Shown: piece by piece, positions 5,436-59,000 of the stretch
How the letters are laid out: every line of letters starts with the position of its first letter
How positions within the stretch are numbered: the first letter of the stretch is position 1
DNA from: Squalus acanthias
Lineage: Eukaryota
Length of the DNA stretch: 64,000 nucleotides
NCBI GenBank assembly: GCA_030390025.1
Contig: CM059432.1
Coordinates: 74,340,001 to 74,404,000, forward strand
Direction of reading: 5' to 3'
Notes under the pieces: model-generated
The model's input: only the letters and a program-made list of their open reading frames with translations
Told to the model about the DNA's origin: nothing
The model's database searches: none
Made by a program: the position numbers and the translations under genes

Positions 5436-6181
5436 TTATTTCCATATTCATTAATAGCAACGGTTATGGTAATTGTGAAGTCAAGAAGTAGAGTTGGTTG
5501 GAATATAGGAGTTTCTCTGCACAGATGGCTGAAGACCTAGGAGACACAAAACTAAGATGTTACAGCGCCACCAATGGTGGGAGGATGTAATAACCATAAG
5601 TTTACATAGACAGTTACCATTATAAATGTAGACATAGGAATTTATAATAAAGGTTGTCACGTGTGTGACAAAAACATGGCAAAAAGTAGTAAGGCTTTGT
5701 AGACAGGAGGCGCAAACTGGTGTAAGATTTTTACTATACTATAGATGGTTGGCAATTGTGTGAGTACGGCTTTATTGGGGCTAATGTCACTCATTTCATT
5801 GGACTCCTATATTTAAATTAACATGGTGGTTTTCTTCAATGAAGGACAGTGATAATTTCATTGAGAATCCCAACTTAATGGTTCAGTTGGACCTTTTAGA
5901 AAGATTCCGTTGTGCGCTATTTAGAATGCTAACTAGATTCCGTTACTTGCACAAGCAATCTAGCATCAAGACTTTTTGCTTGCATTCACTTTTTCGTATA
6001 TGTGAAAAGAAGAGATTTGTTGCAGCAAGTTTTGTTTCAAGCTTCAATATTTTCTTTACGAACCATTGAAATTTACTTATGTAACAAATTAGAAGGATCT
6101 TGCAGTTTCAAAGTGGTAAATACAAATTTGTACTGAATGGAACTAGTTTTGCATTTAGTATCTAAAATCTATTTTTTGCAG

Positions 6182-6628
6182 GATGATGCATTGAACCTGT
6201 CAGTTCCAAGGCAACGTAGGAGACGACGAAAGAAGATTGAAATAGAAGCCGAGCGAGCTGCGAGGAGAAGAAACCTGATGGAGATGGTAGCTCAGCTTCG
6301 TGAGTCCCAGGCAGCCTCAGATAGTGGACAGGAGAGAGCTGTGGACTTATCAAAAGCCTCCAGAGAGGCAAAAAGTTCTACCTCAGTCAGTAACACTTCT
6401 GTTAATCCCAAGTATGTTTTGCCGAACGCCTCTGTGCCAGTATCTGATGCCTATAAAGCCCACATAGAAATGCTGCAAGCAGGCCTTTCACGAACACCAA
6501 CTGGACTTATGATAAATGGTTCACTAGTTGATGGGGAAATGCCAATAAAAAGGAGAAGAGGAAGAAGGAAAAATGTTGAGGGACTTGATCTCCTATTTAT
6601 GAATAACAAACGGACATCATTAAGTGCT
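6182..6628 (+). CDS. CHD7: CHD7 coding exon ([24 protein letters not shown]...KRTSLSA)
   Basis: Acceptor tttgcag|GAT, donor GCT|gtaagt; 447 bp, phase 0; basic [17 protein letters not shown] motif typical of CHD7. Confidence 0.96.
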
Positions 6629-7484
6629 GTAAGTAACATTTTAAAGGGACAATGTTCTTGGATTGCTTCAAAAATTCCTTTTGTTTATAATTTCTCTGCC
6701 ACTCCCCCACCTTGAGTGAAATTGCTTCTCAGCAGTAAATGTGGTTATCCTTTTTTGCTTTAGTATGTTGCTAGGACCTAAACAGGATTTTCACCCAGTA
6801 TTGTAAATTTTGTAATGGCAAGAATTAAAGGGATGTACACACAAAAATGCCTTTGGAATGTTGCTCTTCAAAAGAGCACTTGTTTGGCAACTTGGGGAGG
6901 ACAAGGTTAACTGGCAGAATCAATCTCACTCTATGTAATGTAGCTCCTATTGGCAGATCAGAGCAGCATCAACAGTAGTTGTGATGTTCATGTCAGTCTC
7001 CCAACCTTGCAGCTGAAAGGGAAGTGATAGAGAAAATATTCACTTTCATACTGTACCATTCTCCTTTGTCACTTATTTATTTTTTGCATTGATATTCTCA
7101 CTTCGTGCCAATTACATAACAACACTTATATCATACTTAATGGTAACGTTACACAAACCAGAAACTTTAGCATTACTTGCAGCCCACCAACCAGAGTGCT
7201 AAATGCATAGTAAGATCTTTTCCAAATCCTAATGCTCTTGTGTTCAGTAAAATTGGACTGCTTTAATAAAACGGATCCTAAATATGAGAAGAACATTTTA
7301 CATTTTCTGTGCAAGTGTAACTATATTCTGGTTTAGAGTTATGTTTTGAGTAGTGTTGCTTGGCCAGATTGAGGAAATTATCACTTGATTTGTGATCTGA
7401 GTCTAGATTATTGGACAATAACGGCACGTGATTACCAGTCCTTAATGATGCTAGCTTGGCCAGGATCATTTTTACGAATATATT

Positions 7485-11544: not shown

Positions 11545-11928
11545 GTAAGTACAGCAATACAGATATTTACTAAGAACACTATCTGCTTACCATAAAAAAT
11601 TGGTGTACGATTGCACTAGCAACTATTTTTATACCAAATGACAAACACCCCAAGTTTCCAGATTATAACTAGGCTTTCCAGTTTTTGCTATTTTGAACTA
11701 TATTTTATGCTGATTTTGTTTTTGTGACTGCTATTTACAGTAAGGGGAAAGTACATTTTGTTTTTTGAAGAATAAAATTTAACAAAAATGTTAACTTTCA
11801 TCTCAGAAGCTCATTCCAAACATGGTGTAAATCTATACAGTAATTGTGTGTCTCCATTAATCTGAAGAAAGCTCCGAAATAATCGAAATCAAATTTTGTT
11901 TAAACTTTTGTTCCCGTGTTTTATTTGA

Positions 11929-14900
11929 TTTGCTAAAGCAGTTCGGGAGGATTTAAACTAATATGGCAGGGGAATGGGAACCTATGTAGCGAAACAGGGG
12001 GAAGTAATATGCAGTCAGAAACAAATGTTAGAAGGGTGAGAAACAATAGGGGAAGGCCGAGTAAACAAAGGCAAGAAACACAAAGGGCCATACTAAATCA
12101 TAAGTCTAAAAGGACAAAGGATGTTAATAAAACAAGCCTAAAGGCTCTGTGTCTTAATGCAAGGAGTATCCGTAATAAGGTGGATGAATTGACTGTGCAA
12201 ATAGATGTTAACGGATACGATGTGATTGGGATTACAGAGACGTGGCTCCAGAACAATCAAGGCTGGGAACTGAACATCCAAGGGTATTCAACATTTAGAA
12301 AGGATAGAATAAAAGGAAAAGGGGGTGGGGTAGCATTGCTGGTTAAAGAGGAGATTAATGCAATAGCTAGGAAGGACATCAGCTTGGAGGATGTGGAATC
12401 AATATGGGTTGAGCTGCAGAACACCAAAGGGCAGAAAACGTTAGTGGGAGTTGTGTACAGACCTCCAAACAGCAGTAGTGAGGTGGGGGAGGGTATGAAA
12501 CAGGAAATCAGAGGTGCATGCAAAAAAGGCACGGCAGTTATCATGGGTGACTTTAATATGCATATAGATTGGGCTACTCAAACTGGAAGCAATACGGCGG
12601 AGGAGGATTTCCTGGAGTGTTTAAGGGATGGTTTCCTAAACCAATATGTTGAGGAACCAACTCGAGGGGAGGCCATCCTGGACTGGGTGTTGTGTAATGA
12701 GGAAGGACTAATCAGCAGTCTTGTGGTACGAGGCCCCCTGGGGAAGAGTGACCATAGTATGGTGGAGTTCTACATTAGGATGGAGAAGGAAACAGTTAAG
12801 TCAGAGACCATGGTCCAGAACTTAAATAAGGGCAACTTTGAGAGTATGAGGCGTGAATTGGTGAGGTTAAATTGGCAAGCGATATTTAAGGGGCTATCAG
12901 TGGAAGGGCAATGGCAGACATTTAGAGATCGCATGGATGAACTACAACAATTGTACATCCCGGTCTGGCGTAAAAATGAAAAAGGGAAGCTGGCTCAACC
13001 ATGGCTAACAAGGGAAATCAGGGATAGTATTAAAACCAAGGAAGTTGCATACAAATTGGCCAGAAGTAGCAGCAAACCCGGGGACTGGGAGAACTTCAAA
13101 ACTCAGCAGAGGAGGACGAAGGGTTTGATTAGGGCAGGGAAAATAAAATATGAAAGGAAGCTTGCAGAGAACATTAAAATGGACTGCAAAAGCTTCTATA
13201 AATATGTAAAAAGAAAGAGGTTAGTAAAAACAAACTTAGGTCCCCTGCAGTCGGAAACAGGGGAAGTCGTAATGGGGAACAAGGAAATGGCAGATCAATT
13301 GAACAAGTACTTTGGTTCGGTGTTTACTGTGGAGGACACACACAACCTGCCGGAAATAAAAGGGGTCAGAGGATCTGGTAAGAGGGAGGAGCTGAGGGAA
13401 ATCCTTATTAGACGGGAAAAGGTATTGGGAAAATTGATGGGACTGAAGGCTGAAAAATCCCCGGGGCCTGATGGTCTGCATCCCAGAGTACTTAAGGAGG
13501 TGGCCTTGGAAATAGTGGATGCATTGACGATAATTTTCCAACATTCCTTAGACTCTGGATCAGTTCCGATGGAGTGGAGGGTGGCCAATGTAACCCCTCT
13601 TTTTAAAAAAGGAGGGAGGGAGAAAGCAGGGAATTATAGACCGGTCAGCCTGACATCGGTCGTGGGTAAAATGATGGAAGCAATTATTAAAGATGTCATA
13701 ACAGACCATTTGGAAAGTGGCAACATGATAGGTCCAAGTCAGCATGGATTTGTGAAAGGGAAATCATGCTTGACAAATCTTCTGGAATTTTTTGAGGATG
13801 TTTCCAATAGGGTGGACAGGGGGGAACCAGTAGATGTGGTGTATTTGGACTTTCAGAAGGCCTTCGACAAGGTCCCACACAAGAGATTGGTGAGCAAAGT
13901 TAAAGCACATGGGATTGGGGGTAATGTGTTGACGTGGATTGAGAACTGGTTGGCACACAGGAAACAAAGAGTAGGAGTAAATGGGTACTTTTCAGAATGG
14001 CAGGCAGTGACCAGCGGGGTACCGCAGGGTTCGGTGCTGGGACCCCAGCTGTTTACATTATATATTAATGATTTGGACGAAGGGATTAAATGTAATATCT
14101 CCAAATTTGCGGATGACACTAAATTGGGAGGCAGTGTGAACAATGAGGAGGATGCTAGGAGGCTACAGAGTGACTTGGACAGGTTGGGTGAATGGGCAAA
14201 TGTATGGCAGATGAAGTACAATGTGGATAAATGTGAGGTTATCCACTTTGGTGGTAAAAATAGAGAGGCGGACTATTACCTGAATGGTGGCAGATTAGGG
14301 AAAGGGGAGGTGCAACGAGACCTGGGCGACATCGTACATCAGTCACTGAAGGTGGGAATGCAAGTGCAGCAGGCAGTCAAGAAAGCAAACGGAATGATGG
14401 CCTTCATAGTAAGGGGATTTGAGTACAGGAGTAGGGAGGTGATGCTGCAGTTGTACAGGGCCTTGGTGAGGCCACACCTGGAGTATTGTGCGCAGTTTTG
14501 GTCTCCTAACTTAAGGAAGGACATTCTTGCTATTGAGGGAGTGCAGCGAAGGTTCACTAGATTGATTCCTGGGATGGCCGGACTGACATATCAAGAAAGA
14601 TTGGGTCAACTGAACTTGTATCCTCTGGAGTTCAGAAGAATGAGGGGGGATCTTATAGAGACATTTAAAATCCTGACTGGTTTAGACAAATTAGATGCGG
14701 GCAGAATGTTCCCAATGGTAGGGAAAACTAGAACCAGGGGTCACAGTCTAAGGATTAAGGGGAAGCCATTTAGGACTGAGCTGAGGAGGAACTTCTTCAC
14801 CCAGAGAGTGGTGAATCTATGGAATTCTCTTCCACAGAAGGTTGTTGAGGCCAGTTCGCTAAATATATTCAAAAGGGAGTTAGATATAACACTCACAACT

Positions 14901-15045
14901 AGGGGGATCAAGGGGTATGGCGAGAAAGCAGGAATGGGGTACTGAGGTAGCATGTTCAGCCATGAACTCATTGAATGGCGGTGCAGGCTCGAAGGACCGA
15001 ATGGTCTACTCCTGTACCTATTTTCTATGTTTCTATGTTTTTATG
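11929..15045 (+). mobile_element. Young CR1 LINE truncated at the end of ORF1, with intact ORF2, in sense orientation in a CHD7 intron
   Basis: ORF1 end FAKAVREDLN* (stop 11959-11961), uninterrupted ORF2, CR1 3' hairpin and (TTTCTATG)n tail at 15021-15045. Confidence 0.97.
12009..14945 (+). CDS. CR1 ORF2: APE-type endonuclease plus reverse transcriptase, 978 aa
   Basis: Endonuclease motifs LNARS, ITETW, VYRPP, GDFN, LDWV, SDH; RT motifs YRPVSL, DFQKAFDKV, GVPQGSVLGP, FADD; no stop or frameshift. Confidence 0.96.
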   Translation: MQSETNVRRVRNNRGRPSKQRQETQRAILNHKSKRTKDVNKTSLKALCLNARSIRNKVDELTVQIDVNGYDVIGITETWLQNNQGWELNIQGYSTFRKDRIKGKGGGVALLVKEEINAIARKDISLEDVESIWVELQNTKGQKTLVGVVYRPPNSSSEVGEGMKQEIRGACKKGTAVIMGDFNMHIDWATQTGSNTAEEDFLECLRDGFLNQYVEEPTRGEAILDWVLCNEEGLISSLVVRGPLGKSDHSMVEFYIRMEKETVKSETMVQNLNKGNFESMRRELVRLNWQAIFKGLSVEGQWQTFRDRMDELQQLYIPVWRKNEKGKLAQPWLTREIRDSIKTKEVAYKLARSSSKPGDWENFKTQQRRTKGLIRAGKIKYERKLAENIKMDCKSFYKYVKRKRLVKTNLGPLQSETGEVVMGNKEMADQLNKYFGSVFTVEDTHNLPEIKGVRGSGKREELREILIRREKVLGKLMGLKAEKSPGPDGLHPRVLKEVALEIVDALTIIFQHSLDSGSVPMEWRVANVTPLFKKGGREKAGNYRPVSLTSVVGKMMEAIIKDVITDHLESGNMIGPSQHGFVKGKSCLTNLLEFFEDVSNRVDRGEPVDVVYLDFQKAFDKVPHKRLVSKVKAHGIGGNVLTWIENWLAHRKQRVGVNGYFSEWQAVTSGVPQGSVLGPQLFTLYINDLDEGIKCNISKFADDTKLGGSVNNEEDARRLQSDLDRLGEWANVWQMKYNVDKCEVIHFGGKNREADYYLNGGRLGKGEVQRDLGDIVHQSLKVGMQVQQAVKKANGMMAFIVRGFEYRSREVMLQLYRALVRPHLEYCAQFWSPNLRKDILAIEGVQRRFTRLIPGMAGLTYQERLGQLNLYPLEFRRMRGDLIETFKILTGLDKLDAGRMFPMVGKTRTRGHSLRIKGKPFRTELRRNFFTQRVVNLWNSLPQKVVEASSLNIFKRELDITLTTRGIKGYGEKAGMGY

Positions 15046-19460: not shown

Positions 19461-20341
19461 GTAAGTGTGGCTATTCTTGTCATGAGTCAGTCTTAACAAA
19501 ATAAGATGAATGTATTTGAGAATCTGTATAGAATAAGGCAGAACACTCAGGCTATGTAAAATGTAGTGTCTTTCGACTTTGGGAATGGAGGTTTGTTTCA
19601 GTGTACATTCAGCAAAGATTAATTATTTAGTGGGTAACTCAGTTTGTATGCCAGATCAATTAAAGTTATATCAAGTGACTGCACTTTGCTTTTGTGAACT
19701 AAATTGTAGCACACCACAATTGATTTGGTTACAAGTGCCAAAAACTCACTTTAAAATGCCAATCTCAGTTAGATTGCATTATGTAAAACAATGTCAAGAT
19801 TAGTTTATGTTTGGTAGTGTGATTTTGAATTGCAAAGTCCACAATATGGTTCATAAATTCTGGCATAGACATTTTTCCATTTGCACGAGTTATTATAATA
19901 CTTGATGGATATTTTTGGATTTTAGGTTTTCTCTACACCACTCACACTTACATGAACTCTTATTTTCACTTGTGCTGTTAATGGTGTTTGTTGATCGACC
20001 CAATATATGTTAAATTATGTTGGAAAGGGACATTAGTTGGTTTTCCCTAATGGTTTGACTGTGATTGGCTTCCCCCAAGTGTTTGGCTGAGTTGAGTGTT
20101 GGTGGAATTTGGATTTGAAGTAATCCAGTACCCTTTTGTAGTTACTGCAGACCAAAGTGTTTGTTTTTTGATGCACACAATCTTGGCATTATAATAATTG
20201 TACAGCTGTGTCTTTAAAGTTGTGAGTTATATTCATGCAAAATCTAAATTTGCTTTTGAAGCTATAAATTAATAACGAAGAGCCCTTGCTGATTGTGCAC
20301 TTTAGGATTCATTACAATGACACTGCTGTTGCCTTTTTCAG

Positions 20342-21259
20342 GGTTTTCTACCAGAGTCCATGTTTGACCGTGTTCTCACTGGGCCAGTTGTTAGAGAGGA
20401 GGGAGCAAGTAGGAGAGGGAGAAGGCCTAAAAGTGAGATTGCCAAAGCTGCTGCGGCTGCTGCTGCTGCTTCAGCCTCAGGAATAAACCCACTACTGATG
20501 AACAGTCTTTTTGCTGGAATGGATCTAGCAAGCCTGCAGAATTTACAGAACCTGCAAAGTCTTCAGTTAGCTGGATTGATGGGTTTCCCATCAGGCCTTG
20601 CTACAGCTCCCACAGGAGGAGATGCAAAAAACCCTGCTTCTTTACTACCACTGATGCTTCCAAGCATGGCAGGGCTGCCCAATATGTTTGGACTTGGAGG
20701 CTTGTTAAGCAACCCCTTGACTGCTACAGCTAGTACTTCTTCAGCAACATCGGGTCCAAGTGAAACAGAAAGTGGCATTTCATCTAAGACAGAAAATGAT
20801 AAAGAAAATGATAAAGAAAATGAAGATAAGGAAATAAACAGTGCTGAATCTGCAGTTGATTCTAATAATGCAAGTTCAAGCTCTTTCACAACTGCTGCAA
20901 CCACTGGACTATCCAACAACCCTCTTGCTTTCAACCCATTCTTGCTTTCCACTATGGCTCCTGGATTATTCTACCCATCTATGTTTCTTCCTCCTGGACT
21001 GGGAATGACCTTGTCTGGTTTTCCTCATACTACACTGGCTGGACTGCAGAGCACAATGAGCTCAAGTGATGATAAAGAGGATAAGACAGATGGCAAAACT
21101 GAGGACAACAGTTTCATTGAAGGAGAAGCCAATTCAGATGACAGTGATCCTGTGGGAAGCCCCAGTAAACCAGCAGATTCTTCCCTTGTGGAAGATGAAT
21201 TGGCACAGGCGACAGGGTTGGACTCAGTTGAGGGAGAAGAAGAGGAAGATGAGGATTAA
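20342..21259 (+). CDS. CHD7: CHD7 terminal coding exon ([15 protein letters not shown]...EEEEDED*)
   Basis: Acceptor tttttcag|GGT at 20342, in frame with ORF 20360..21259; poly-Ala, [14 protein letters not shown] and [20 protein letters not shown] motifs; TAA at 21257-21259. Confidence 0.97.
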
Positions 21260-41900: not shown

Positions 41901-42853
41901 ACAGTCACACCTCAGAGGAAAGCACAGGTACAAGAAGGGGAGAGTGTGACTATCATTCAGCAGTGTAGGGAGAACCAAAGAGAGGTAGAAAAGGAGGTCC
42001 TGCAGACACTGGTCCTGTACAACAGGTATGATGTACTTGATACCTATGAGGATAAGGAGAAAGACTGTGGGGATGACAGCTATTAGGAGCTAAATTAAAA
42101 GGCAGGACCTAGAGTGTAATAATCTTGAGCCACGTGCAAATTGGCATGGGACAAATAGATTAGGAAAGTTAACATGTGGCTAAAGGATTGGTGTGGGAAA
42201 TAAGGGTTGCACTTTATGGGACACTGGCACCAGTACTGGGACAGGAAGGAGCTGTACCGCTGGGATGGGTTTCACCTGAACTGGGCTGGGACCAAGGTCC
42301 TAGCTGAAAGGATAAATAGGTCTGTAGAAAGGGTTTTAAACCAATAAGAGGGCTCAGACAGAAATAAAAATAGCCTAAAGACTAAAAGAAGGGATGAGAC
42401 CAATGTCCAGGTTATCAATAGAGTTAAAGGTAATGTAAATACTTCAGAAAAAAATATAGGAAATAATTTTTAAAAACTGATCCAAATGCAACAGAAGTGA
42501 TAAAGAAACAAGGAATGTGATAAGTTAAAATGTACATTAAAAACATCAGGGCATAGGGGTAGGACATGGTCTATTGCCAAATTAAAAGTTCTATACAGTA
42601 ATGCATGTAGCATAGGAATTAAAACAAGTGAATTAGAAGTGCAAATTCAGCTAAAAGGGTATGATGTAGTGGCCATCACTGAAACCTGGCTTTAAGCTGG
42701 GCATGACTGGGAGATAAATATTCCTGGTTATAAGGTCTTTAGAAAGGAGAGAGGAATTTGAAAATGTGGAGGAGTAGCAATGTTGATAAGGGACACTATT
42801 ACAGTATTAGAAAGAGGGGATATCAGTAAAGGTGAGGAGGCAGTGAACACTAC

Positions 42854-56329: not shown

Positions 56330-59000
56330 ACCCGTGGAGTCCCCTAAGGACTATTTTAACCCTTTCCTTTTCCTCTCTACATGTAGCCCCTTGGTGGCAT
56401 CATCTCCAGGCTTCCATAGTTATGCTGATGACAGCCAGCTCTACCTCTCCACTTCTTTGACTCAACAATGATTTCCATACGGTCAGACTGCCTGTCCAAC
56501 ATCCAGTCATGGATGAGTCACAACTTCCTCCAACTGAACATTGTTCAACCACTGTCATAAGTTCTGCTGCCGTACCACTACCTCTGTTCCCTTGATCAGC
56601 CACTTTCTAGGCTGACCCAGACCACACAAAAGCTTGGCATTCTGTTGAACTCAAAGCTCAGCTTCAAAGATATCTTATCGATCACCAAGACTGCTTATTT
56701 CCACCTTCAAAACACTGCCCACTTCCGCCCTACCTCAGCTCCTCTCTTACTAAAATCCTTATCCATGCTTTAGTCACCTCTCGGCGCGATTACTTTAGTG
56801 CCCTTCTTGTTGGCCTCCCATCATCCAAAATGCAGCTGCCAATAACTGTCTCACACTATCCCTCTCCCCTGTCTCACCCATCCCTCTCCCCTGTCTCACA
56901 CTATCCCTCTCCCCTGTCTCACCCATCCCTCTCCCCTGTCTCACACTATCCCTCTCCCCTGTCTCACACTATCCCTCTCCCCTGTCTCACACTATCCCTC
57001 TCCTCTGTCTCACACTATCCCTCTCCCCTGTCTCACACTATCCCTCTCCCCTGTCTCACACTATCCCTCTCCCCTGTCTCACACTATCCCTCTCCCCTGT
57101 CTCACACTATCCCTCTCCCCTGTCTCACACTATCCCTCTCCCCTGTCTCACCCATCCCTCTCCCCTGTCTCACACTATCCCTCTCCCCTGTCTCACACTA
57201 TCCCTCTCCCCTGTCTCACCCATCCCTCTCCCCTGTCTCACACTATCCCTCTCCCCTGACTCACACTATCCCTCTCCCCTGTCTCACACTATCCCTCTCC
57301 CCTGTCTCACACTATCCCTCTCCCCTGTCTCACACTATCCCTCTCCCCTGTCTCACACTATCCCTCTCCCCGTCTCACACTATCCCTCTCCCCTGACTCA
57401 CCCATCCCTCTCCCCTGTCTCACACTATCCCTCTCCCCTGTCTCACCCATCCCCCTCCCCTGTCTCACACTATCCCTCTCCCCTGTCTCACACTATCCCT
57501 CTCCCCTGTCTCACCCATCCCTCTCCCCTGTCTCACACTATCCCTCTCCCCTGTCTCACACTATCCCTCTCCCCTGACTCACCCATCCCTCTCCCCTGTC
57601 TCACACTATCCCTCTCCCCTGTCTCACCCATCCCTCTCCCCTGTCTCACCCATCCCTCTCCCCTGTCTCGCACTATCCCTCTCCCCTGTCTCACACTATC
57701 CCTCTCCCCTGTCTCACACTATCCCTCTCCCCTGTCTCACACTATCCCTCTCCCCTGTCTCACACTATCCCTCTCCCCTGTCTCACACTATCCCTCTCCC
57801 CTGACTCACCCATCCCTCTCCCCTGTCTCACACTATCCCTCTCCCCTGTCTCACCCATCCCTCTCCCCTGTCTCACCCATCCCTCTCCCCTGTCTCGCAC
57901 TATCCCTCTCCCCTGTCTCACACTATCCCTCTCCCCTGTCTCACACTATCCCTCTCCCCTGTCTCGCACTATCCCTCTCCCCTGTCTCACACTATCCCTC
58001 TCCCCTGTCTCACACTATCCCTCTCCCCTGTCTCACACTATCCCTCTCCCCTGTCTCACACTATCCCTCTCCCCTGTCTCACACTATCCCTCTCCCCTGA
58101 CTCACCCATCCCTCTCCCCTGTCTCACACTATCCCTCTCCCCTGTCTCACCCATCCCTCTCCCCTGTCTCACCCATCCCTCTCCCCTGTCTCACACTATC
58201 CCTCTCCCCTGTCTCACACTATCCCTCTCCCCTGTCTCACACTATCCCTCTCCCCTGTCTCACCCATCCCTCTCCCCTGTCTCACACTATCCCTCTCCCC
58301 GTCTCACACTATCCCTCTCCCCTGTCTCACACTATCCCTCCCCCCTGTCTCTCATTATCCCTCCCCCCTGTCTCGCCCATCCCTCTCCCCTCTCTCACAC
58401 TATCCCTCTCCCCTGTCTCACACTATCCCTCTCCCCTGTCTCACCCATCCCTCTCCCCTGTCTCACACTATCCCTCTCCCCGTCTCACACTATCCCTCTC
58501 CCCTGTCTCACACTATCCCTCCCCCCTGTCTCTCATTATCCCTCCCCCCTGTCTCGCCCATCCCTCTCCCCTCTCTCACACTATCCCTCTCCCCTGTCTC
58601 ACACTATCCCTCTCCCCTGTCTCATACTATCCCTCTCCCCTGTCTCACACTATCCCTCTCCCCTGTCTCATACTATCCCTCTCCCCTGTCTCGCACTATC
58701 CCTCTCCCCTGTCTCACCCATCCCTCTCCCCTGTCTCACACTATCCGTCTCCCCTGTCTCATACTATCCCTCTCCCCTGTCTCACACTATCCCTCTCCCC
58801 TGTCTCACACTATCCCTCTCCCCTGTCTCACTGACTAACAATGGTTCCCAGTCCTGCAGTGTAGTAAATTTAACATTTTGAACTTTGCCTTTAAATCCCT
58901 CCATGGTCTCATCCAATCTATAACGTCCTCCAGCCTCATAACCCCTTCCTCTAAATCTTTCCCAGAACTGTGCCTTTTGTACATCCTCCATCCCTTTGCC
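56330..59000 (+). mobile_element. Old L2-type LINE remnant containing a minisatellite
   Basis: FHSYADDSQLYLS at 56411; IHALVTSR.DY at 56761; continues after the array with a WFP motif and ttaaatccctccatgg. Confidence 0.8.
56846..58831. repeat. Minisatellite, about 2 kb, with a 23-bp unit CTGTCTCACACTATCCCTCTCCC and a 22-bp variant CTGTCTCACCCATCCCTCTCCC
   Basis: Roughly 85-90 near-identical tandem units with no unique spacers. Confidence 0.98.

Follow-up and report, generated by a model that had tools for sequence, protein, structure and literature searches.

We examined a 64,000-nucleotide stretch of the Squalus acanthias genome (the window; assembly GCA_030390025.1, contig CM059432.1, positions 74,340,001 to 74,404,000 of the forward strand), in which the junction between the two open reading frames (ORF1 and ORF2) of a CR1-clade long interspersed nuclear element (LINE) carries the slippery heptamer U_UUA_AAC. 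This heptamer is a real, conserved signal, and comparison of related copies suggests that it is probably a site of programmed -1 ribosomal frameshifting, through which an ORF1–ORF2 fusion protein would be produced. We consider such a shift to be the simplest account of the junction because the heptamer is exact, the -1 phase of ORF2 is fixed, the overlap of the two frames is very short, and no AUG is conserved. Fusion of the two CR1 proteins by -1 frameshifting had been put forward in an earlier note on this DNA; our analysis supports that proposal and adds to it the existence of subfamilies with no AUG ahead of the endonuclease.

The focal CR1 copy and its ORF1/ORF2 junction

ORF1 of the focal copy ends GAG GAT TTA AAC TAA (11947-11961, plus strand, as are all features of this copy). 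Re-reading the sequence confirmed two statements of the earlier note, namely that the heptamer T TTA AAC (11952-11958) is in exact X XXY YYZ phase relative to ORF1 and is directly adjoined by the stop codon (TAA, 11959-11961), and that the -1 frame is the ORF2 frame and stays open for 19 codons to the ATG at 12009. Specifically, the -1 frame is part of a long frame at 11937-14945 (1002 amino acids from stop to stop), and the intact ORF2 frame counted from the heptamer (11952-14945) comprises 997 amino acids that encode an apurinic/apyrimidinic-type (APE) endonuclease and a reverse transcriptase. ORF2 has Pfam matches to Exo_endo_phos and RVT_1, and its profile and fold matches in the Protein Data Bank (PDB) are to the L1 and TRAS1 endonucleases. 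The frame is closed upstream by a TAA located 6 codons 5' of the heptamer (11934-11936), which bounds the ORF1/ORF2 overlap. Downstream, a fast-evolving, frame-preserving linker (FKLIWQG..., 11952-12134) leads from the heptamer to strand 1 of the endonuclease, at the end of which lies a conserved Asn (LNARS, 12156-12158) that aligns to residue 14 (Asn) of the L1 endonuclease. The first in-frame ATG of ORF2 in the focal subfamily is codon 20 (12009-12011), and other subfamilies do not conserve it.

The focal copy is 5'-truncated. Its identity to an ORF1-bearing member of the same family (L040) starts at 11928 with 24 matching bases, and similarity to L040 is absent upstream of that position, leaving an ORF1 remnant (11928-11961) that consists of the last 10 codons of an SGNH/GDSL esterase domain and the TAA. 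Because just 10 ORF1 codons are retained, the focal copy is itself unable to yield a fusion. The complete ORF1 of L040 is 314 amino acids long and matches Lipase_GDSL_2 in Pfam (E 7e-13), and the ORF1 profile matches PDB entry 4c1b, 'ORF1-encoded protein' (E 2e-43). An identical 1002-amino-acid open frame is present in 20 of the first 30 focal-family matches, and with so many copies carrying the full frame, the focal family is young.

With respect to classification, the element shares with CR1-clade LINEs an APE–reverse transcriptase ORF2, an SGNH esterase ORF1 (in L040), a zinc-finger-like N-terminus, short 3' repeats and frequent 5' truncation. The 3' untranslated region (14946-15045, end approximate) carries short TTTCTATG-type repeats at its end, these tandem repeats lying near 15021-15045, and there is no poly(A). 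The element would accordingly be a CR1-clade LINE, its placement in CR1 rather than L2 being by architecture. Candidates for ORF1-bearing CR1 copies in this genome number in the tens of thousands.

Conservation of the heptamer

CR1 junctions were collected in two ways. An unbiased sample of the genome comprised 140 stretches of 10 kb (1.4 Mb) from seven places, in which ORF1 ends were located with a profile that omits the final 8 ORF1 columns and is blind to the heptamer. Exact TTTAAAC followed by TAA or TAG was found at 15 of the 18 junctions in this sample, with the three misses consisting of one point change, one expansion of the G-run and one interrupted copy, and ORF2 was in the -1 phase at 11 of the 13 junctions for which the endonuclease was located. 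In targeted searches, whose queries are biased towards similar copies, TTTAAAC TAA was present in 30/30 copies of the focal family, and the exact heptamer in 27/30, 24/30, 26/30, 17/20 and 19/20 copies of other families. The codon right after the heptamer, as column counts over 20 representatives, is TAA in 12, TAG in 6 and a CAA/CAG-type sense codon in 2, its first base being T in 18/20 and C in 2/20.

For the comparison of individual codons, 160 junctions were placed in 30 groups; 10 groups (mis-anchored or truncated satellites) were removed and one was filtered out, and the comparison covers 19 lineages and 136 copies. The terminal Leu of ORF1 is TTA in 18 of the 19 lineages (the exception is one old single copy), whereas TTA makes up 5 of the 120 Leu codons at other ORF1 positions. 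Parsimony assigns 1 codon change to this Leu, as compared with 6, 3, 8, 8 and 4 changes at five other near-invariant Leu columns. The codon preceding it specifies 7 different amino acids among the lineages, yet its third base is T in 19/19, and on the tree its amino acid changes 8 times and its third base 0 times (mean 3.6). The Asn codon is AAC in 17/18, whereas another invariant ORF1 Asn is AAT in 14 and AAC in 5, and the change from AAC to AAT is silent in both frames. The check proposed in the earlier note, whether the Leu is always TTA preceded by T, came out positive save for the one lineage, and free synonymous variation at the heptamer, which that note held would speak against frameshifting, was not what we saw: variation is suppressed relative to other invariant Leu and Asn codons.

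These silent-site patterns bear on the possibility, in our view a very slight one, that no recoding takes place at all. In such a scenario the heptamer would be maintained by protein constraint (Leu-Asn in ORF1 and Phe-Lys-Leu in ORF2) together with shared ancestry, and ORF2 would be reached by reinitiation at an AUG such as that at 12009. Some other ORF1 codons are likewise invariant at silent sites, as this would allow, but other invariant Leu codons vary freely, and regions upstream of any AUG would have no need to stay open.

Separately, the third base is C in all 19 lineages at ORF1 alignment columns 51, 66 and 68, which possibly reflects a further RNA-level constraint, or chance.

Reading frame, linker and start codon of ORF2

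The phase of ORF2 was assessed in 135 copies in which both anchors, the heptamer and the endonuclease Asn, were present. In 8 of the 9 subfamilies with at least 3 copies each, the endonuclease is by majority in the -1 frame with 0 stops, and the other frames of the heptamer-to-Asn interval contain 2-13 stops each. The interval takes lengths of 156, 171, 180, 204, 213 and 246 nt in the subfamilies. The proposition that ORF2 is always in -1 and open across the site holds for these eight subfamilies; one 3-copy group and one family with a variable G-run do not establish the phase either way.

In terms of initiation, no in-frame Met precedes the endonuclease Asn in two subfamilies (36 and 11 copies), and Met is likewise absent from this region in 20/20 copies of a third, for which the query itself was Met-free. 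A member of this third subfamily (L344) has a full 995-amino-acid frame, the first Met of which lies 12 residues past the Asn. Where a first Met is present, it is codon 4, 17, 19, 20, 24, 31, 44, 45, 53 or 58, and the regions ahead of it stay open beyond shuffle expectation (P 0.003, 0.009 and <0.001 for the three largest). In the predicted structure (predicted local distance difference test score, pLDDT, 78), which matches the L1 and TRAS1 endonucleases, the Asn ends strand 1, and therefore, in elements with no AUG before the Asn, an AUG start would delete this strand. For the scenario without recoding, a linker AUG is indeed available in the focal family and several others, but the one at 12009 is preceded by three out-of-frame ATGs (11963, 11974 and 11984), and none precedes the Asn in the three large subfamilies or in an element from outside this genome (L093, below). 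Unless they are non-autonomous, the AUG-less subfamilies already contradict that scenario.

An AUG-independent form of termination-reinitiation deserves somewhat more weight, although we still regard it as unlikely. Here ribosomes would stop at the ORF1 UAA or UAG and restart nearby in the -1 frame, and the conserved letters would represent the restart context. The stop directly follows the heptamer in 18/20 representatives, and past that point the -1 frame stays open; furthermore, non-AUG sense codons are tolerated by L1 ORF2 (PMC1965478), calicivirus reinitiation is insensitive to changes in the start codon (PMC5972666), and a structure that would stimulate frameshifting was not found (RNAalifold; nested structures). 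Reinitiation of this kind accounts for the missing AUG, but not for the heptamer, as it predicts neither an exact X XXY YYZ heptamer, nor T before the Leu, nor a fixed -1 phase. The heptamer is also kept (once as TTTAAAT) in three related copies that have CAA instead of the stop, and wild-type L1 and SART1 keep an AUG (PMC5972666). Beside the ORF1 stop we found neither an AUG nor a near-cognate codon to be conserved, and the arrangement that characterizes termination-reinitiation, in which the AUG of ORF2 overlaps the ORF1 stop or lies close to it, is not seen.

Upstream of the heptamer, the -1 frame meets a stop within 1-5 codons and the overlap is devoid of ATG, so that a programmed shift would be confined to the heptamer or just before it. 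Of 24 lineage representatives, 23 have a -1-frame stop exactly 6 codons 5' of the heptamer (TAG 20, TAA 2, TGA 1), as compared with stops in at most 5/24 representatives at other -1 positions and in up to 12/24 at +1-frame positions, and this stop may guard ORF2 against upstream slips. The fixed place of the TAG in 20/24 representatives would also suit a 3' splice site, with a spliced or internally started transcript linking the -1 frame to an AUG-bearing exon upstream. We consider this highly improbable: the candidate acceptor is TAA in 2 representatives and TGA in 1, where the stop is kept and YAG is lost, a pyrimidine tract is absent before the TAG in the AATAG and ACTAG families, and splicing leaves the preference for AAC over AAT unexplained.

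Elements and proteins beyond this genome

A metagenome scan returned 19 loci, and among the 14 inspected, the sole CR1 junction of this kind was that of L093. The ORF1 of this element is 36% identical to that of the focal family and at most 42% identical to any stored homologue. Its junction reads CAT TTA AAC TAG, with a -1 frame that is open into the endonuclease and contains no Met before the Asn; a G-run is present at +11, and the upstream -1 stop occupies the same place but is TGA. The viral contigs searched contained no CR1, and the GTDB contigs searched gave distant GDSL-like matches only (7 loci at 22-28% identity).

Among proteins, the closest ORF1 homologue is from a sawshark (74%), and a C-terminal LN is present in 70 of 133 homologous ORF1 proteins. 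Homologues that end in x-L-N include those assigned to rays, sharks, Paramormyrops, Xenopus, Hyla, Leptobrachium and Chrysemys; more distant teleost esterases are without the LN ending, and a chimaera protein ends LNY. The residue before the Leu is one whose codons are unable to end in T in 0 of 21 protein clusters, as compared with 9/21 and 8/21 at the two preceding positions. Two gene models from the stingray Hypanus (P0032 and P0094) continue from ORF1 through FKL..QG to the endonuclease. When longer fused proteins were sought, the 3 models recovered were uninformative, which is weak evidence either way.

Two further observations were made in these searches. Distant ORF1 esterases from ENA contigs (P0111-P0119) end KVRYLN, a hint that the x-L-N ending may reach beyond the vertebrate set. 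A CR1 ORF1 protein 58% identical to that of the focal family is filed under the name Pseudomonas aeruginosa on a 4-kb contig (P0008), and is most likely host DNA contamination.

Evidence against frameshifting and the search for a downstream stimulator

Several of our results weigh against a programmed frameshift. The lineages compared share ancestry, and third-base changes are likewise wholly absent from 3 of 54 other ORF1 columns, one of which has 5 amino-acid changes; for this reason the TTA is stronger evidence than the T before the Leu. The corresponding test in proteins is matched by position -7, which likewise scores 0/21, and the DNA from outside this genome comprises the single element L093. 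With respect to phase, the ninth subfamily (3 copies with differing indels) does not fix it, single copies are in phase in 83 of 111 cases, and two old subfamilies are so in just 3/11 and 2/6; we attribute the out-of-phase single copies to decay after insertion. A family with a variable upstream G-run (L185, L187 and L345-L364) has an offset of 0 in 4 and of +1 in 4 of its 17 measurable copies, with nearly all of the length variation being towards longer runs. The linker lacks amino-acid conservation, its ratio of nonsynonymous to synonymous substitution (dN/dS) being 0.5-2.4 versus 0.06-0.27 in the endonuclease and, for the majority of close pairs, close to 1 or higher; it behaves as a spacer, of which the frame matters and the sequence does not. 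Finally, the AUG of L1 ORF2 can be replaced by any sense codon (PMC1965478), and a missing AUG alone is for that reason no proof of frameshifting.

The remaining points concern the stimulator. A conserved hairpin is absent, RNAalifold giving 0 pairs on 17 junctions (nested structures; pseudoknots were not searched directly), the downstream fold has z < -2 in just 2/20 representatives, the junction has no Rfam match, and no consistent long-range pairing partner was found. In the focal copy, the 90 nt downstream fold with a minimum free energy (MFE) of -8 kcal/mol (z 0.27), no better than shuffles, and the typical stem-loop or pseudoknot 5-9 nt downstream was not seen among nested structures; such an element is usual at -1 sites but not present at all of them, some being stimulated by a protein. 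The description of the downstream sequence in the earlier note, as G-rich and without a strong pseudoknot, is thus accurate as far as nested folding shows.

Given that folding, RNAalifold and Rfam results were all negative, neither a local hairpin nor a consensus structure nor an Rfam family was retained as a candidate. In 6 copies, the 3' end ranked within the top 1-7% as a pairing partner of the G-run, but it was never the consistent best site, and we do not claim such pairing. Roughly 1,270 nt into the focal ORF2 there is an 8-nt complement, which was set aside, as other families are without it.

The downstream feature that is conserved is a G-rich motif at +11 to +20 past the heptamer (11969-11978), a candidate stimulator that encodes Gly-x-Gly in the -1 frame. 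Each of positions +11 to +15 is G in 16-19 of the 20 representatives, and +18 is G in 17/20, with GG at +18/19, and a G-quadruplex forms part of the MFE structure in 6/20. The conserved G-run may merely encode Gly-x-Gly.

In old copies, the post-junction G-run has grown into long poly-G tracts (L066, L085, L132 and L241), making the CR1 G-run a microsatellite seed. Some copies of the variable G-run family described above place ORF1 in frame with ORF2, as either natural fusions or homopolymer errors.

Proposed mechanism

On the evidence above, we infer that ribosomes shift at the heptamer and that the fusion is made. In the proposed mechanism, the majority of ribosomes would terminate at the UAA that follows U_UUA_AAC, releasing the 314-amino-acid ORF1 protein, and a minority would slip one base back and produce an ORF1–linker–endonuclease–reverse transcriptase fusion of ~1,309 amino acids. 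The predicted transframe peptide would read EDLN-LIWQG upon tandem slippage and EDLK-LIWQG upon slippage in the P site only. With mammalian ribosomes, U_UUA_AAC is among the most shift-prone heptamers (PMC5009743). More speculatively, the adjacent stop and the G-run at +11, either protein-bound or folded as a G-quadruplex, could replace a pseudoknot as stimulator.

A broader reading is that one vertebrate CR1 branch has made a Gag-Pol-like fusion via U_UUA_AAC for hundreds of millions of years, driven by the stop and the G-rich motif and with no pseudoknot. The branch would span sharks and rays, and signs of it at the protein level come from a bony fish, frogs and turtles. We put this forward tentatively, our confidence in it falling a little short of even. 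On this reading, such sites would constitute a structure-free class of natural -1 signals, possibly stimulated by a protein or a G-quadruplex.

Comparison with known systems

Parallels to the proposed CR1 site include viral ones. Infectious bronchitis virus (IBV, a coronavirus), human T-cell leukaemia virus (HTLV) and the gag-pol junctions of long terminal repeat (LTR) elements share the same heptamer and phase, with a structural ORF followed by a polymerase in -1 (PMC5009743, PMC7297798). Unlike these sites, the CR1 junction has no downstream stem-loop that we could find, its stop abuts the heptamer, and its host is a non-LTR element. [quoted passage not shown] This offers an analogy for CR1, although the PRRSV motif is C-rich, whereas that of CR1 is G-rich and is a candidate known from its sequence alone. 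A nearby stop is required for shifting in pea enation mosaic virus (PEMV; PMC5009743), which is analogous to the stop adjoining the CR1 heptamer, and G-quadruplexes promote +1 shifting in human HDAC1 (PMC12809536), again by way of analogy.

Among LINEs, frameshifting is not without precedent. TRE5-A and TRE3-A of Dictyostelium are two-ORF elements stated to need a -1 frameshift for ORF2 (PMC5911963), as we propose for CR1; they belong to another clade and have a different ORF1, and CR1 keeps a canonical U_UUA_AAC with an adjacent stop across a vertebrate radiation. Mammalian L1 and silkworm SART1 resemble CR1 in having a bicistronic LINE mRNA from which ORF2 must be expressed. L1, with its 63-nt spacer, and SART1, with its UAAUG stop-start, are both interpreted as using termination-reinitiation at an AUG (PMC5972666, PMC3708506), whereas CR1 has no conserved AUG and its ORFs overlap in -1. 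The available portions of published CR1-clade descriptions give two ORFs and no mechanism for ORF2 translation. We found no frameshift proposal for CR1 in the full texts searched, a coverage outside which the original CR1 papers and the Repbase/Dfam notes fall, such that an earlier remark is possible; the first 300,000 characters of a large frameshifting review make no mention of CR1.

The translation of LINE ORF2 is settled only in part, and the animal cases that have been studied (L1 and SART1) use reinitiation. If CR1 does shift frame, its ORF2 protein would exist fused to the esterase ORF1 protein, with the ratio of ORF1 protein to reverse transcriptase set as in retroviruses, and annotations in which ORF2 begins at an arbitrary internal AUG would need correction. 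The natural frameshift signals would then also gain one that lacks an RNA structure. CR1 is the dominant repeat of birds (PMC11835228).

Other CR1 copies and surroundings in the window

TTTAAAC alone has 20 matches in the window on both strands; followed by TAA or TAG, it occurs only at 11952 and 1949, both of which are CR1 junctions. The latter belongs to a second CR1 copy of another subfamily on the minus strand (GGT TTA AAC TAA, 1940-1949, with the phased heptamer at 1943-1949), in which the -1 frame is open into the endonuclease and the first Met lies 2 residues before the conserved Asn. A third, decayed copy on the plus strand reads GTT TTA AAC CAA TAA (42335-42347), its stop falling one codon later and its -1 frame being broken, closing after 10 codons. 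The earlier report of a phased heptamer at both of these copies is correct for 1943-1949 and for 42335-42341, but in the latter the stop does not directly adjoin it. CAA replaces the post-heptamer stop in three related old copies (42342-42347 in the window; L079 and L086), which possibly represent a subfamily whose stop shifted by one codon.

The focal copy is flanked by two plus-strand segments (6137-6715 and 20321-21259) that have no Pfam match and that we take to be host exons, resembling the C-terminal part of a CHD7/8/9-type chromatin remodeller. The focal CR1 would then sit in an intron in sense orientation. Further downstream, at approximately 56600-58900, lies a long tandem repeat with open frames of SHYPSPL/LPCLT-type units in several frames.

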